49,995 nucleotides of DNA. Source: a virus. Taxonomy: Duplodnaviria; Heunggongvirae; Uroviricota; Caudoviricetes. Both the position numbers and the translations under genes were made by a program. Within the stretch, counting starts at the first letter, position 1, and every line of letters begins with the position of its first letter. The notes under the pieces were generated by a model, which was given only the letters and a program-made list of their open reading frames with translations, did no database searches and was not told the DNA's origin. The stretch is taken from positions 1 to 49,995 of IMG/VR virus record IMGVR_UViG_2721755643_000006. One strand, 5' to 3'. Below are positions 1,305 to 7,469 of the stretch, piece by piece.

Positions 1305-1928
1305 TTACTTAACGTCAAACGCCCGAATTGAAGCCAAATCATCCAGACTGCTCAGCTCCTCTTTCATCTCCCGCTGACGGCGATAAATCTCATCGTTGCG
1401 ATCGACCTGCGCCTGCACCATTGCTGCCGCCAGTTCTTCCAGTTCCGGCATCGACAGTTTCACCTGCTGATTATCGGCATCGCTCCACGCCATATGTGTT
1501 TGTGCTGTGACAGATTTTGCCAGCATGACTACCGGGGACAGGCGGCCCAGTGAGTCGGGACCAGCATTCCAGATACGACCGTTCCATTCAAACGTGAACG
1601 GCTTCGCCTCCTGTTCTGCGCGCCATGCTTCAATTTCCTGACGTCTGGCCTCTCTGGCCGCTTCCAGCATTTCTGGTGTCACAGTGAATGGGGCTATCTC
1701 ACCCCATTTGCCGCTTTGCAGTTCCTGCCAGATTTGCTGACCCGTCGGAGCGACATCATCAGCGGTGGCTGTGTAGGGGACTGCCTGGTCCCTGTCGTCA
1801 AAAAAAACGTCACAGTCTACTGCGCCACTTTCGGTATAACGGGGATTAATGATTTTTTTAATTTCCACGGTGCATTCCTCACGATGTGCGAATAAAAAGC
1901 CCGGGCATTGCGCCAGAGACATGTGCAT
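1305..1928 (-). CDS. Putative tail fiber assembly chaperone
   Basis: 207-aa ORF immediately downstream of the side tail fiber remnants, the position tfa occupies in lambda; no direct similarity to lambda Tfa recognised, so the call is positional. Confidence 0.45.
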   Translation of the reverse strand: MHMSLAQCPGFLFAHREECTVEIKKIINPRYTESGAVDCDVFFDDRDQAVPYTATADDVAPTGQQIWQELQSGKWGEIAPFTVTPEMLEAAREARRQEIEAWRAEQEAKPFTFEWNGRIWNAGPDSLGRLSPVVMLAKSVTAQTHMAWSDADNQQVKLSMPELEELAAAMVQAQVDRNDEIYRRQREMKEELSSLDDLASIRAFDVK

Positions 1929-3287
1929 CCGGCACCCCGGACAGGGCGCAATATGACCCCGGTAATGAATGCTCTGAACATCCCGTAATGAAAAATTGTG
2001 GGTATGCTATATACGTTCCGGTGGGAGTACTGGGCACTGAAATCCCCACCGGTCCCAGTCGTGAGCCTCTGTATGACTGCCCCCTGACAAGTCTGATGAC
2101 TTTATCACCGTCAGCTTCTCCCTGGTACGCAGCAATAATCAGCCCGCCAATGTCAGGGTCTCCCCATCTGTTGCGGACAGAGCTCGCCACGATTCTGTAA
2201 ATAATATCTTCTGTGGTTATATTTATTTTCACCCAGCCAGTCAGTCTGGATATGGGCCAGTAGCAGTAGCGGGTGTGATAAATGGGGCCGTTAATGCCGT
2301 AAAAAGTAAGGGATTTGGCTCTGTACCGCGGTTCTGTTGTCTCAGGGCGTGCATCAGTCCACCGGATGCTGAGCACCCCTTCAAACCGTGTGTCGGGTAT
2401 GATGCCAGGCGGCCAGCAACGGAATACTCACCTGGCAGCGCATTCCTTACCCAGGCCAGGAAATCACTCTTAGTGTCAAAACGGATAACATCTTCAGCAG
2501 AAAAGCACACCCAAAGCCGAATGCGCCGGGTATCGCCAGACGGCCTTTTGTCCGGTCGTAAATGTCGCTCTGTGCTTCCATCGTGGCCGCACTTTTCAGC
2601 CCCAGATTATCCCGGGACTTCTGTTGTACCTTTTCGCCTGCTGCCGCATTTCTGACAGATGGTTAGCCATTTTCAGAGTGCCGGTCAGCGCAGCATCAAT
2701 GTCATTTTTGGCCTGTTCTGCTGCGCGGGCATAACCTGCGGCATCCTGTGCGCTCTGTCCGGCTGCGGCTGCATTTGCTCCTGTGCTTGTCACATCTTCC
2801 GCAGTGGCCTTTCTGTCCTCAGCTGTGACGGTGCATCCTGTCGGGCTTTCTCCGCAAAACGTTGTGCATCATCACGGGCCGTTGCGGCTGCCGCCACATC
2901 CTGCGCCGTCTGCTGTGCGTTTCCGGCTGCAGCCCCGGCACTCTGCTGCGCCTGCGCCACCATTTCCTCAAAGCGCTTCATCACCTCCGGACGTAAATCA
3001 CCATCCTTTGGTGCATTCAGAAACGCGTTCAGTGTCCCCGGTGCATCAGTCGGTGCCACATCAATATCCCCGACACGGGTTGGCTGCCAGCCGTTACAGT
3101 GAAGCGCAACCTCGTAATACCCCGGCTCAGCCTCAATCACATAAGCACCGTTATTGTCCGTCACGCAAGTGGCAACAACGTGTGCCACAACGGTCGGACT
3201 GGTTCTTCTGGCCCGCAGTTCAATCGCACAATTTACGACAGGTTTACCCGCCCCATCTTTCAGTACACCTGAAATCTTTACTGCCAT
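1879..3287 (-). pseudogene. stf: Side tail fiber (Stf) gene, truncated and frameshifted
   Basis: N-terminus MAVKISGVLKDGAGKPVVNCAIELRARR matches lambda Stf; downstream coding is split over ORFs 2790-3329, 2596-2793, 2241-2510 and 1879-2376 in different frames; total span far shorter than the 774-aa lambda Stf. Confidence 0.6.
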
Positions 3288-3345
3288 ATTCACCCCACAA
3301 AAAGCCCGCCTGAACCAGCGGGCTGTCATAACACTGTGTTACCTG

Positions 3346-3945: not shown

Positions 3946-4016
3946 AATTACCTCTCGCTTTTCTGCAATAAAAAAGGCACCATTTCTGGTGCCCGTATCT
4001 GGGTTATAAAATTCAG

Positions 4017-7000
4017 CTAATCGTGATGCCTGCAGTGGCTTTCTTCATCACAACACCAGCAAATCGCTGATATTGCTGTGGATACCAGCCATTTACAGCC
4101 ATGCGATACAGAAAACTCCAGCGTCATGTGACCGTGACCGGCAGGCATATCAATAACACCCGTATATATCAGCGTATTATCCAGGGTCGTTCGGTTATAA
4201 ATTTCAGCACCGTTTTTCTTCACTATCAGGCGGCATGACGATAATATTGTTATTCTTCCGCTCATGTTTAGCACCGCGAAACGCCACCGCGGGAATAACA
4301 ATTTGCCGATCAAACGGCTGATCGTCATAAACCCTGACGGTAATGGTCCCTGATGGCCACCTCTCCGGTGCCCGGAGTCCGTGGGAAGGTTTGCCACTGT
4401 TTAACGAGATCGCCTTCATCTGGTTCGCGACAATTTCCCAGAACCGACAGTTCTTATTAATCGTGACGTTGTTGAGCGTCCGGAGTTCGCGTTCACGTTA
4501 CCGCTGATATCGGCATTTTTCGCCGTCAGCCGTCCGCCAGGTGTCAGGGAAAATGCCGGAGGATTACCGCCGCTGGTAATGGTCGGAGCCGTCAGGCGTT
4601 TCAGGAACACGTCGTTCATGAATATCTGATCGCCCTGACCAACAAACATCGGCTTTGTGTTGCCATTCGCAGGATTAATCATCGCAATCCTGTCTGCCGC
4701 CAGCAGCACCTGACTCTGCATTCCTGCTGGCGTATTCTCAATACCGGCACCGATACCCGCAATATAAAGGCGTCCGTCCTTCATCTGTTGCAGCTTCACA
4801 GCCCACATGCTGTTCAGGTTATTATTTGTATCAACCTGAACTTTCTGTATCTGCTGGATTGCAGCACTCTGATTTTCCAGTTTTTTATTGACGGTTTGCG
4901 TGATTTCATTGCTGACATTCGTAATGGACGTCCTGATTTCAGTCAGGTCCGGCGCAAGCTGACCGTTATCAATCTGCGTCCACAACTCCTTGCCGAGATG
5001 CGTTTTATTGATCAACCCTTTATAAAAACTCAGATAACCTTCCGCATCATCGCTCGCCCGACCGACGGCCTCCACAAATGCCGATTTGCCAACGGTGTTC
5101 ACACTGCGAACGTAAAAATAATAATCATGGCCCGGTTGATATTGATACTGGCGGCTATCCAGTACAGCGCCGTGCCAAGATAGCGGGCGTGGTTTCAACC
5201 TGCCTGATATCCGCAATCCGCTTTTCCGAAAACCAGAACTCAAACTGCACCGTCGGGTCATATACAGCCAGTTTCGGGACCGCCGTTATCTGAAAATACC
5301 CCGGTATCAGTTCAATAGTGACAGGCGCTGCCGGTGCCGCAATCCGGAACGATACCGACACCGGATCGCCCTGCTGCCCCCGGGCATTTACCCCCGGACT
5401 GTCAGCGTATAACCCCACGCCAGCTGCGTGAAACGATATGTGGTTTCCGTCGTCCGGGCTGTGCTGACCAGCCGCTCACTGCCGTCGTCCGCTGCCACGG
5501 TCAGGCGAAGCAGGAAGCTCACTCCCTTCACCACCTTCGGCGTGTCCCATCGCGCCAGCACCTGATATTCCCCGCTGTCTGCGGTGACTTCGGCGGTCAG
5601 ATGCTGCACCGCTGGCGGCGTGACACCATTCACCGTGCCGCGCCGGTCACCGTCAAAGTGTGCCCCGTTATCCACGATGGCCTCTTTTTCCGGCACATGC
5701 TGCACGGCGGTGATGGCATACGTGCCGTCGTCGTTCTCACGGATACTCACGCAGCGGAACAGGCGCTGGCGCAGCGTCGGCAGCTTCAGCCCCCACACGC
5801 TGTATTCTGCAACGCCGTCAGGAACCCGGCTCACTTTCACCTTCACGCCGTCGGTGACGGACTGAACCTCCACGCTGACCGGATTGCCACTTCCGTCAAC
5901 CAGGCTTATCAGCGTGGTACCGGAGGATGGCAGCGTGATTTCACGGTCGAGCGTCAGCGTCCGGGTCTGGCTGTTCACCGCCAGCACGCGCCCGCCGGTG
6001 CTGATACCGGCATAGTCATCATCGCAGATTTCAATGACATCGCCCGGTACATGGCGAAGCCCTTCAGCACCCACGCTGAAGTCCACGGTCTGCGTCTCCA
6101 GCAGTTCCGTTTTAATCAGCCACAGCCCGGCGCGGTGTGCCTGCCCCCGGCTGGTACAGCCAAAGGCATCCATCTTCGTGACGTTACGACCGTAACGGAG
6201 AATGGCCTGCGTGTCCTCCACAAGCTCTGTCGCCGTCTCATGACCGTTGTCCGGATCAATCCAGTTCACCTCAACGACATTATGGCGGTCCTTCAGGGCG
6301 CTGAAGCTGTAGCGGAACGGCGCGCCATCATCCGGCATCACCACATTACTGCGGTTATAGGTCCACACTTTATCCGACGGTCGGTCCTGCACGAACGTCA
6401 GCGTCTGCCCGTTCCATACCGGCATACAGCGCATCGCCGAGCAGAAATCACTGAGAACATCCCACGCCTTACGCTGTGTGGTCAGGTAAGCGTTACAGGT
6501 GATGCGCGGCTCCGTGCCGCCAAATCCGTCCGGCACTGACTGGTCGCAGTACTGGCCGATGACATACAGCGCCCATTTGTCCACATCTGCCGCACCAAGA
6601 CGTTTCCCCATGCCGTAGCGCGGATGAGTGAGCATGTCCCACAGACACCAGGCCATGTTGTTGCTGTATGCTGGCTTAAGCGTTCCGTCCCAGATACCGC
6701 TGTATTGCCGCGTCTGCGGGTTATAGTTCGACGGCACCTGCAGAATGCGCCCGCGAAGATGATAATTGCGACTCACCTGCTGGTTACCGAACTGCTCTGA
6801 ATCCACCTGCACGCCGACCAGCGCCGTGTTCGGGTAGCACTGTTTCACATCGATGATTTCGGTGTACGACGACCAGAGCGTTTTGTTCTGCAGCTGGTCT
6901 GTGGTGCTGTCCGGTGTCATCCTGCGCATCCGGATATTAAACGGGCGCGGCGGCAGGTTACCCACCACCACCGAGGCCAGATACTGCGAAGTGGTTTTGC

Positions 7001-7469
7001 CCTTAATGGTGATGTCTTTTTCCGTCACCCAGCCACCGTTACGCTGTATCTGAACCAGCAGGCGGACTTCCGACGGATTCCGGTCACCCTTTGAGGTGGT
7101 TTCCACCAGTGCCTGCACACCGAAGGTCAGGCGCAGACGGTCGATGTTTGCCGACGTGATGGTCCGGGTGATCGGCGTGTCATATTTCACTTCCGTACCC
7201 AGCACCGTCTCTGAGCCGGAAGATTCAAACCCCTCCGGCGGTGTCTGCTCCTGCTCGCCGGCGCGGAACACCACCGTAACACCGGAAAAGTTTGTCTTCC
7301 CCTCGCTGTCCAGGACCGGCGTACCGTTCAGCAGCACGCTTTTTAATCCATCCACCGGACCGTCAACCGGCCCTTCGCTGATGGCATCAATCACACTCAG
7401 CAACTGCGTGGATTTCAGGTTGTCCTTCGCTTCGCGCGGGGTATGCCCCTTACTGCTGCCTTTACCCAT
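4017..7469 (-). pseudogene. J: Tail tip host-specificity protein J, disrupted by multiple frameshifts
   Basis: N-terminal 693 aa in ORF 5388-7469, then J-like fragments at 5155-5418, 4416-5261, 4204-4419 and 4017-4397 in shifting frames; total span ~1150 codons, close to lambda J. Confidence 0.7.

Follow-up and report, generated by a model that had tools for sequence, protein, structure and literature searches.

Single-base deletion errors in the assembly very probably account for the broken tail-tip genes of an ipaH-carrying lambda-like prophage

Gene organisation of the locus

The stretch of DNA analysed, termed the window here, comprises the 49,995 nucleotides of IMG/VR record IMGVR_UViG_2721755643_000006. 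It carries a lambda-type structural module on a single strand, in the order Nu1-A-W-B-C-D-E-FI-FII-Z-U-V-G-T-H-M-L-K-I-J-lom-stf (Table 1). This order is drawn from the annotation of a 99.9%-identical relative and the Pfam labels of the called genes. As the initial annotation had proposed, the genes from Nu1 to I are full-length ORFs: in a per-gene translation check, all 19 were free of internal stop codons and had the lengths of the annotated genes in the closest complete relative, a prophage of E. coli RMDEC364.

The same annotation described J, lom and stf as frameshifted, and these ORFs are indeed broken in the window as given; the limits assigned to the damaged region coincide exactly with the stf stop codon (1879) and the J start codon (7469). 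On the minus strand, J is split into five pieces (ORFs 5388–7469, 693 aa; 5155–5418, 87 aa; 4416–5261, 281 aa; 4204–4419, 71 aa; and 4017–4397, 126 aa), lom into three (3718–3945, 75 aa; 3244–3675, 143 aa; and 3347–3472, 41 aa) and stf into five (2790–3329, 2596–2793, 2447–2581, 2241–2510 and 1879–2376).

Table 1. Features of the prophage window, with the state of each gene.
Feature	Positions	Strand	Observations
ipaH 3′ part (T3SS effector E3 ubiquitin ligase)	1–1125	+	Cargo beside the tail-fibre module; annotation of matching relatives; LRR_TTSS and NEL domains in assembly L019
DUF4376 gene, downstream of stf	1305–1928	-	Intact; Pfam DUF4376; exact protein is AKH26203.1
stf, side tail fibre gene	1879–3287	-	Repaired length 470 aa; four single-base deletions, codons 153, 214, 265 and 296
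lom, Ail/Lom outer-membrane beta-barrel gene	3351–3945	-	Repaired length 199 aa; five single-base deletions, codons 72, 74, 78, 162 and 198
J, tail-tip host-specificity gene	4013–7469	-	Repaired length 1159 aa; 23 missing bases in 22 events, all at codon 685 or later
I, K, L, M, H, T, G, V, U, Z, FII, FI, E, D, C, B, W, A, Nu1	7530–23344	-	Intact, lambda order; no indels against RMDEC364; Pfam labels in relatives
Error-dense stretch	2405–5421		31 deletion events and one adjacent substitution at 5421, against every related assembly; global and BLAST alignments

Translation of the DUF4376 gene probably begins at the GTG at 1868 (187 aa), immediately past the stf stop codon, and not at the ATG at 1928; from this GTG, the product aligns to a 187-aa homologue from E. 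coli SE11. The 50-nt annotated overlap between the two genes, together with the odd-looking C-terminus of Stf, prompted the idea that stf and DUF4376 are one gene split by a lineage-wide frameshift. This was rejected because one frame suffices to align Stf with its SE11 homologue as far as the end of the latter. Members of the cluster named 'tail fiber N-terminal' align to the stf N-terminus only, in one frame. The ipaH cargo indicates an enteroinvasive E. coli (EIEC) or Shigella background for the prophage, and the order J-lom-stf-DUF4376-ipaH is also found in RMDEC364, two FDAARGOS strains, O121 201805972 and draft assemblies.

Deletions are confined to a single 3-kb stretch

With RMDEC364 as the main reference, 47.2 kb of the window could be aligned, revealing 21 substitutions and 32 missing bases in 31 events. 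Every one of the 32 gap bases is missing from the window, never from RMDEC364, and falls within positions 2405–5417; insertions are absent, and the remaining 44 kb aligned contain no indels. The fragmentation of J, lom and stf is far beyond chance: a 3-kb span contains all 31 frameshifting events, and the other 44 kb are free of them. The log10 probability of all 31 events falling in one given 3-kb span is -37.

The deleted bases are enriched in runs of at least two identical bases (26 of 32, against 46% expected; P = 4e-5). The shortened runs are mostly short, at 2–4 bases with many of 2–3 nt, and six deleted bases lie outside any run. In the densest bursts there are nine deletions per 93 nt (positions ~4372–4455), where nine runs are each one base shorter. 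The deletion clusters end abruptly at the right side. Substitutions number at most two within the error-dense 3 kb. Over the same 6.2 kb, the ratio of indel events to substitutions is at most 0.14 among relatives; the window has 31 events against eight substitutions.

These figures bear on the reading that the adsorption genes are real pseudogenes, which gathered numerous frameshifts once they were no longer under selection. Pseudogenes are abundant in EIEC and Shigella genomes, and the prophage lineage is damaged at other points too, by an IS insertion and an annotated rusA frameshift. Furthermore, real-looking J lesions occur in relatives, where FDAARGOS_944 has a frameshift and O121 201805972 an internal stop codon, and other assemblies have a split J or a tape-measure gene interrupted by an IS. 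The real lesions in relatives are, however, single events, whereas the window combines 31 frameshifts with almost no substitutions, and its events are uniformly one-base deletions, with neither insertions nor larger indels.

Repair restores conserved, full-length proteins

The missing bases of the window were reinserted under the guidance of the RMDEC364 alignment. Aligning the J region to intact J, as had been proposed alongside the initial annotation, located 22 deletion events; the N-terminal 684 codons are free of lesions and the C-terminal 40% is affected. Repaired J has no stops, is 100% identical at the protein level to RMDEC364 J and shares 82% identity with lambda J over its full length (1–1158). 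All six J domains are present, with Pfam Ig_GpJ_C at residues 1030–1159, and repaired J combines full-length lambda J homology with a C-terminal receptor-binding domain. Repaired Lom is likewise 100% identical to its RMDEC364 counterpart, and Pfam Ail_Lom covers residues 1–199 of 199 (E = 1.9e-128). That J and Lom are recovered without amino acid change argues against decay.

Repaired Stf differs from the RMDEC364 protein by one substitution, has no stops and carries Pfam phage_tail_N at residues 1–131. The initial annotation had regarded stf as truncated as well as frameshifted, and this could not be upheld: alignment to a 590-aa E. coli SE11 homologue keeps the 470-aa protein in one frame and ends no more than two residues short of that homologue's C-terminus (..GLFIR), and the 470-aa form is annotated as intact in relatives. 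The apparent shortness of stf arises because the comparison was made with lambda stf, with which only the N-terminal 121 aa are common. A single error type, clean flanks and repair to conserved full-length proteins are the marks of an artefact, and all three are seen here; the mixed indels of various sizes, accompanied by substitutions, that mark natural pseudogenes are not found among the lesions of the window.

The deletions are absent from related assemblies and protein records

The 32 bases are all present in the 14 independent assemblies that span the whole stretch, at 91.6–99.7% identity, and in four more over the part that these cover. Most of these assemblies have J, lom and stf as intact genes, whether by gene calling or by annotation. 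The identical 32 gaps were obtained against L001–L003, L008, L011, L015, L019 and L024–L027. Lesions of natural decay would be expected to be reproduced in independent assemblies of the lineage, whereas none of the 31 events is shared with any of the 18 assemblies compared, which include ones with only 10 positions differing from the window over 15.7 kb. No assembly with the exact haplotype of the window (deletions aside) over the whole region was found among those compared.

The 84-nt version of one deletion cluster, as it stands in the window, has no exact match in viral_contigs or in genome_contigs, the latter null being weakly informative since that collection holds one genome per species. 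The intact 93-nt version of this cluster has 32 matches in viral_contigs. Correspondingly, the fragment ORFs of 693, 281, 179, 165 and 143 aa have no exact match in a collection of 15 billion proteins. Intact neighbours are on record as AKH26199.1 (H), AKH26200.1 (M) and AKH26203.1 (DUF4376), and the AKH26199.1–AKH26203.1 record has no protein accessions left for J, lom and stf.

Genuine decay of the adsorption genes is, on this evidence, highly improbable. The initial annotation had pictured a decaying or domesticated prophage able to package DNA without making a tail tip; the near-zero substitutions, the unshared lesions and the identity of the repaired proteins to those of intact relatives contradict that picture. 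Tail-tip decay is almost certainly not a real feature of the prophage.

Proposed origin of the deletions

The argument for an artefact is comparative and is made from assemblies. Its most probable outcome, at roughly 92%, is that the broken J, lom and stf genes represent single-base deletion errors in the assembly and not biological decay. It is proposed that, at positions 2405–5421, a long-read-only assembly was left locally unpolished or of low confidence, and that its consensus dropped 32 single bases there. The dropped bases would mostly have shortened short runs of identical bases, artificially breaking stf, lom and the C-terminal 40% of J. In the organism itself, the ipaH-carrying lambda-like prophage most likely has all three genes intact, with products of 470 aa (stf), 199 aa (lom) and 1159 aa (J). 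One real lesion may lie among the errors, because genuine single J lesions occur in relatives.

Sequencing or assembly error had been offered as a fallback explanation from the outset, and it gains support from lesions that are deletion-only, clustered, run-biased, absent elsewhere and perfectly repairable. The more specific suggestion of homopolymer errors in a draft holds as far as error is concerned. It does not hold in implying a generally poor draft, as only one 3-kb stretch is affected, the shortened runs are mostly of 2–4 bases and 6 of the 32 deletions lie outside runs. An origin in the low-quality tails of Sanger primer-walk reads, suggested by the abrupt right-hand ends of the clusters, was dropped, the probable source being a PacBio assembly.

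The source record is probably that of EIEC O96:H19 CFSAN029787 (CP011416), as we infer. According to its paper, CFSAN029787 (2015) was sequenced on the PacBio RS II alone to 355x coverage and assembled with HGAP.3, with contig ends trimmed by hand and no mention of short-read polishing. A local error rate of 1% is unusual at 355x and would require a mapping failure at a repeat. Consensus polishing may fail where reads have no unique placement, the tail-tip module being a multi-kb near-identical repeat in genomes of the group. Such within-genome repeats were seen in related genomes: three prophages of CP065611.1 have 5.1–9.8 kb of the module in common at ≥99.9% identity, and two contigs of one IMG genome are identical over 5.8 kb of it. 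In the nearest clones, short-read contigs end at positions 7558, 8680 and 9506, which also hints at a repeat.

Near-identical modules in several copies within related genomes also lend themselves to a chimeric join, in which the assembly switched from one prophage copy to another at the shared repeat, rendering the gene order of the window partly artificial. Over positions 1–5420 the window and the L019-type haplotype are identical, and they diverge from 5487 on (97 mismatches up to 9896), while from 2762 on the window is RMDEC364-type; the haplotype-identical segment 2762–5486 nearly coincides with the errors at 2405–5421. However, the complete RMDEC364 genome has this overall arrangement too, its head and tail genes likewise adjoining the stf, DUF4376, ipaH and dinI flank, and therefore the order is natural in at least one relative. 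RMDEC364 and the window differ by only 11 substitutions over the left 2.8 kb, and mosaicism is common in lambdoid prophages. A chimeric join is considered very unlikely.

The clustering of the deletions might instead reflect a localised burst of -1 frameshift mutagenesis on the receptor-binding module, through error-prone repair near a break or a diversification system. DinB-type error-prone polymerases produce -1 frameshifts by slippage, which would also fit the run bias. Such a burst would, however, have destroyed all three genes rather than diversified them, and the same deletions are seen in no other genome compared. We know of no process that yields a deletion density of ~1% over 3 kb, free of substitutions and of events in a 44-kb flank, and the probability assigned to this reading is next to negligible. 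A mismatch-repair-deficient mutator, DGR-type diversification and recombinational import of a decayed copy were each rejected, since the 44-kb flank is free of indels and neither A-biased nor imported substitutions are present.

It is extremely improbable that the 31 deletions are real in the cell, in which case one EIEC clone would have had lom, stf and the receptor-binding end of J knocked out by a localised burst of -1 frameshifts in a single short episode. If real, they would point to a targeted or break-associated mutagenic process of a new kind acting on the host-range module of a prophage.

Implications for the use of the record

The value of attributing the lesions to assembly error lies mainly in quality control, as a face-value reading of the window would lead to the false inference of a domesticated prophage that lacks a tail tip. 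The CFSAN029787 record serves as a mapping and comparison reference for EIEC O96:H19, and frameshifts have been reported in two of its ipaH genes. If CFSAN029787 is the source, its reported frameshifts, such as those in the two ipaH genes, warrant a short-read check before claims of pseudogenisation are made.

Comparison with known systems

Cryptic or defective lambdoid prophages, such as Rac, Qin, DLP12 and Shigella remnants, share with the window a lambda-type organisation, an E. coli or Shigella background and IS insertions. They decay via large deletions, IS insertions and scattered point lesions with substitutions. In the window, by contrast, 19 structural genes are intact, and the supposed lesions are deletion-only with no accompanying substitutions.

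Lambda PaPa also has a side-tail-fibre frameshift alongside otherwise intact structural genes. This frameshift (orf-401 / orf-314) is a real single-base lesion, reportedly described by Hendrix and Duda in 1992, that leaves laboratory lambda without side tail fibres; the split ORFs are visible in NC_001416. The lambda PaPa lesion is one event, reportedly reproduced in every sequencing of the strain, whereas the window stf has four lesions, among 31, that are seen nowhere else. Its product resembles that of orf-401 in the first 121 aa only.

In long-read-only bacterial assemblies (PacBio HGAP/Quiver, nanopore), consensus indel errors create spurious pseudogenes. Like the deletions in the window, such errors are single-base, deletion-biased and run-enriched, break ORFs and restore the protein once corrected. 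They are usually scattered, whereas those of the window are confined to one 3-kb stretch of 50 kb, many of them in runs of 2–3 nt and 6 of 32 outside runs.

The ipaH-carrying lambdoid prophages of Shigella and EIEC have the same order as the window, with J, lom, stf and DUF4376 followed by ipaH on the opposite strand, beside dinI and aspS. Only the 32 missing bases and a few substitutions set the window apart, with no biological difference. What is left, biologically, is an ordinary lambda-like prophage that carries ipaH and has its full complement of head, tail and adsorption genes.

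Broken reading frames in the tail-tip genes

The initial annotation described J, lom and stf as frameshifted, and the head, packaging and tail-shaft genes as intact. In the sequence as given, this frame breakage is true: J is divided among five open reading frames (ORFs) of at least 40 aa, lom among three ORFs and stf among five, and the ends of the claimed span coincide exactly with the stop of stf and the start of J. From Nu1 to I, all 19 genes read through without interruption and have the lengths expected. The broken frames are very probably absent from the organism itself. 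The prophage, lambda-like and carrying ipaH, is otherwise ordinary, and the finding, an artefact of assembly, is of value solely as a quality flag for the source record.

Features of the window and their coordinates
Feature	Position	Strand	Remarks
ipaH, 3′ part	1–1125	+	T3SS effector E3 ubiquitin ligase; convergent with the tail-fibre/DUF4376 module and immediately downstream of it
Late region	1305–23344	−	Complete, lambda-type; leftward order Nu1, A, W, B, C, D, E, FI, FII, Z, U, V, G, T, H, M, L, K, I, J, lom, stf, DUF4376 gene
stf	1879–3287	−
lom	3351–3945	−
J	4013–7469	−
Direct repeats, 180 nt	23703–23882, 26405–26584		94% identical
ISSfl7 (IS5-like), 27-nt imperfect inverted ends	24008–24034, 24901–24927		Inside the 2.7-kb segment
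Two low-GC hypothetical genes	24911–25366, 25490–26650		GC about 39%; inside the 2.7-kb segment
Four-tRNA cluster	29735–30044	−	Gly-TCC, Thr-TGT, Arg-TCT, CAT-anticodon tRNA; upstream of the lysis region
rusA	32921–33299	−	120-aa ORF at 32937–33299
ISCro1 insertion site of RMDEC364	about 43056–43063		Insertion missing from the window

Deletion pattern relative to RMDEC364

The closest complete relative is the prophage of E. coli RMDEC364, whose annotation gives DUF4376, stf (470 aa), lom (199 aa), J (1159 aa) and I as intact genes. In a 47.2-kb alignment with this prophage there are 21 substitutions, and the gaps add up to 32 bases in 31 events; all 32 bases are absent from the window, which has no insertions. 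All 31 deletion events lie within 2405–5417, and a search for indels in the remaining 44 kb of the alignment found none. Of the events, four fall in stf and five in lom; the other 22 (23 bases) fall in J, all at or past codon 685. Runs of at least two identical bases hold 26 of the 32 absent bases, where the local sequence would predict 46% (P = 4e-5), and in the densest burst, at 4372–4455, nine runs each fall one base short of their length in the relatives. Besides the 32 deletions, the sole structural difference over 47 kb is a 2.7-kb IS66-family (ISCro1) insertion with an 8-bp duplication in RMDEC364.

When the 32 bases were put back and the window's own substitutions kept, the amino-acid sequences of J (1159 aa) and Lom (199 aa) were 100% identical to the RMDEC364 proteins, Stf (470 aa) carried one substitution, and a check of all three for internal stops found none. 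That these genes are essentially without substitutions argues against a selection-free period long enough for 31 frameshifts, and so against the decay first proposed.

Lesions in other assemblies

The 32 bases are present in all 14 independent assemblies that span the full stretch, and in four further assemblies across the portion covered. These comprise complete genomes, a phage record with a partial genome, and short-read drafts in which the tape-measure or DUF4376 protein is identical; identity is 91.6–99.7%, and in most of them J, lom and stf appear intact in the gene calls or annotation. The window's 84-nt version of one deletion cluster had no exact match in collections of viral and species-representative genomes, whereas the intact 93-nt version matched 32 viral contigs exactly. 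Five fragment ORFs were likewise not found in a collection of approximately 15 billion proteins.

Compared pairwise over the same 6.2 kb, relatives differ by 17–281 substitutions and 0–17 indel events (at most 0.14 events per substitution), compared with 31 indel events and 8 substitutions for the window. Real decay in relatives of this prophage family amounts to one lesion each: a single J frameshift in FDAARGOS_944 (L004), one internal stop codon in the J gene of O121 201805972 (L006) and an IS within the tape-measure gene in another assembly. The lesions in L004, L006 and the NCTC assemblies L064–L066 also include a J divided between two or three ORFs. Some of all these lesions, from long-read assemblies, might be errors as well. 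The rival readings, namely genuine decay, a chimeric join and a local burst of −1 frameshifts of biological origin, are very unlikely even when taken together; one real lesion may be concealed among the errors.

Haplotype mosaic and probable origin of the errors

Compared with L019 (GCA_013054065.1), the window has 0 real mismatches over 1–5420 and 97 over 5421–9896. It is of RMDEC364 type from position 2762 on, with 11 mismatches to RMDEC364 in 1–2761. The haplotypes of these two relatives are identical over 2762–5486, nearly the same span as the error stretch (2405–5421, ending in a substitution). The window is a haplotype mosaic, and the zone in which it switches falls on the error stretch. 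This stretch could mark a chimeric join between prophage haplotypes, given that the window is a perfect match for one haplotype on its left side and matches the other on its right; however, a chimera is not required, because RMDEC364 has the same overall arrangement. The haplotype overlap also fits a zone of ambiguous mapping.

In general, where polishing fails, a long-read-only consensus retains residual errors that are biased towards deletions and towards runs. It is plausible that polishing would fail at the tail-tip module because genomes of this group carry it as a long, nearly identical repeat. Three prophages in CP065611.1 have 5.1–9.8 kb in common at 99.9% identity or more, and two contigs of one IMG genome (2877285697) are identical across 5.8 kb. 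In these genomes, which are related to the window, two or three prophages per genome have 5–10 kb of the M-to-ipaH tail-tip module in common, at 99.9–100% identity. Gene calls in L020 and L021 (both CP065611.1) include no stf between lom and DUF4376. In the clones nearest to the window, short-read contigs end at 7558, 8680 and 9506.

The intact neighbouring proteins match GenBank AKH26199.1 (H), AKH26200.1 (M) and AKH26203.1 (DUF4376). This numbering leaves just two accessions to be shared among L, K, I, J, lom and stf, which implies a source record without proteins for J, lom and stf. This record is probably that of the enteroinvasive E. coli O96:H19 strain CFSAN029787 (CP011416), the genome announcement of which describes PacBio RS II sequencing, HGAP.3 assembly and hand-trimmed contig ends, and does not mention short-read polishing.

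Neighbouring features

The ipaH gene is virulence cargo borne by the prophage; in relatives it is annotated as ipaHd or ipaHe, and in one it is itself frameshifted. Together with the best database matches, this cargo points to an enteroinvasive E. coli or Shigella-type background. Between Nu1/cos and the lysis genes, the 180-nt repeats flank a segment of 2.7 kb. The CAT-anticodon tRNA is Met according to ARAGORN and Ile in the relative's annotation. In RMDEC364, rusA is annotated as frameshifted; the window shares that sequence without indels, and the 120-aa ORF is open all the same, so this flag may reflect no true defect.

Side-fibre type and repaired J

The proposed truncation of stf did not hold. 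The 470-aa Stf resembles lambda orf-401 only in its first 121 aa, but its alignment to a 590-aa E. coli SE11 homologue stays in one frame and reaches to within two residues of the C-terminal end; the two differ mainly in that the 470-aa Stf has a shorter middle section. The SE11 homologue alignment of the DUF4376 protein begins at a GTG at 1868 (−), just past the stf stop. On the strength of these two alignments, Stf is a full-length protein of a shorter side-fibre type and not truncated. The annotated DUF4376 start, an ATG at 1928 (−) with a 50-nt overlap with stf, is probably too far upstream. Once repaired, J has the full set of six J domains, among them the receptor-binding domain at the C-terminus, and shares 82% identity with lambda J along its entire length.
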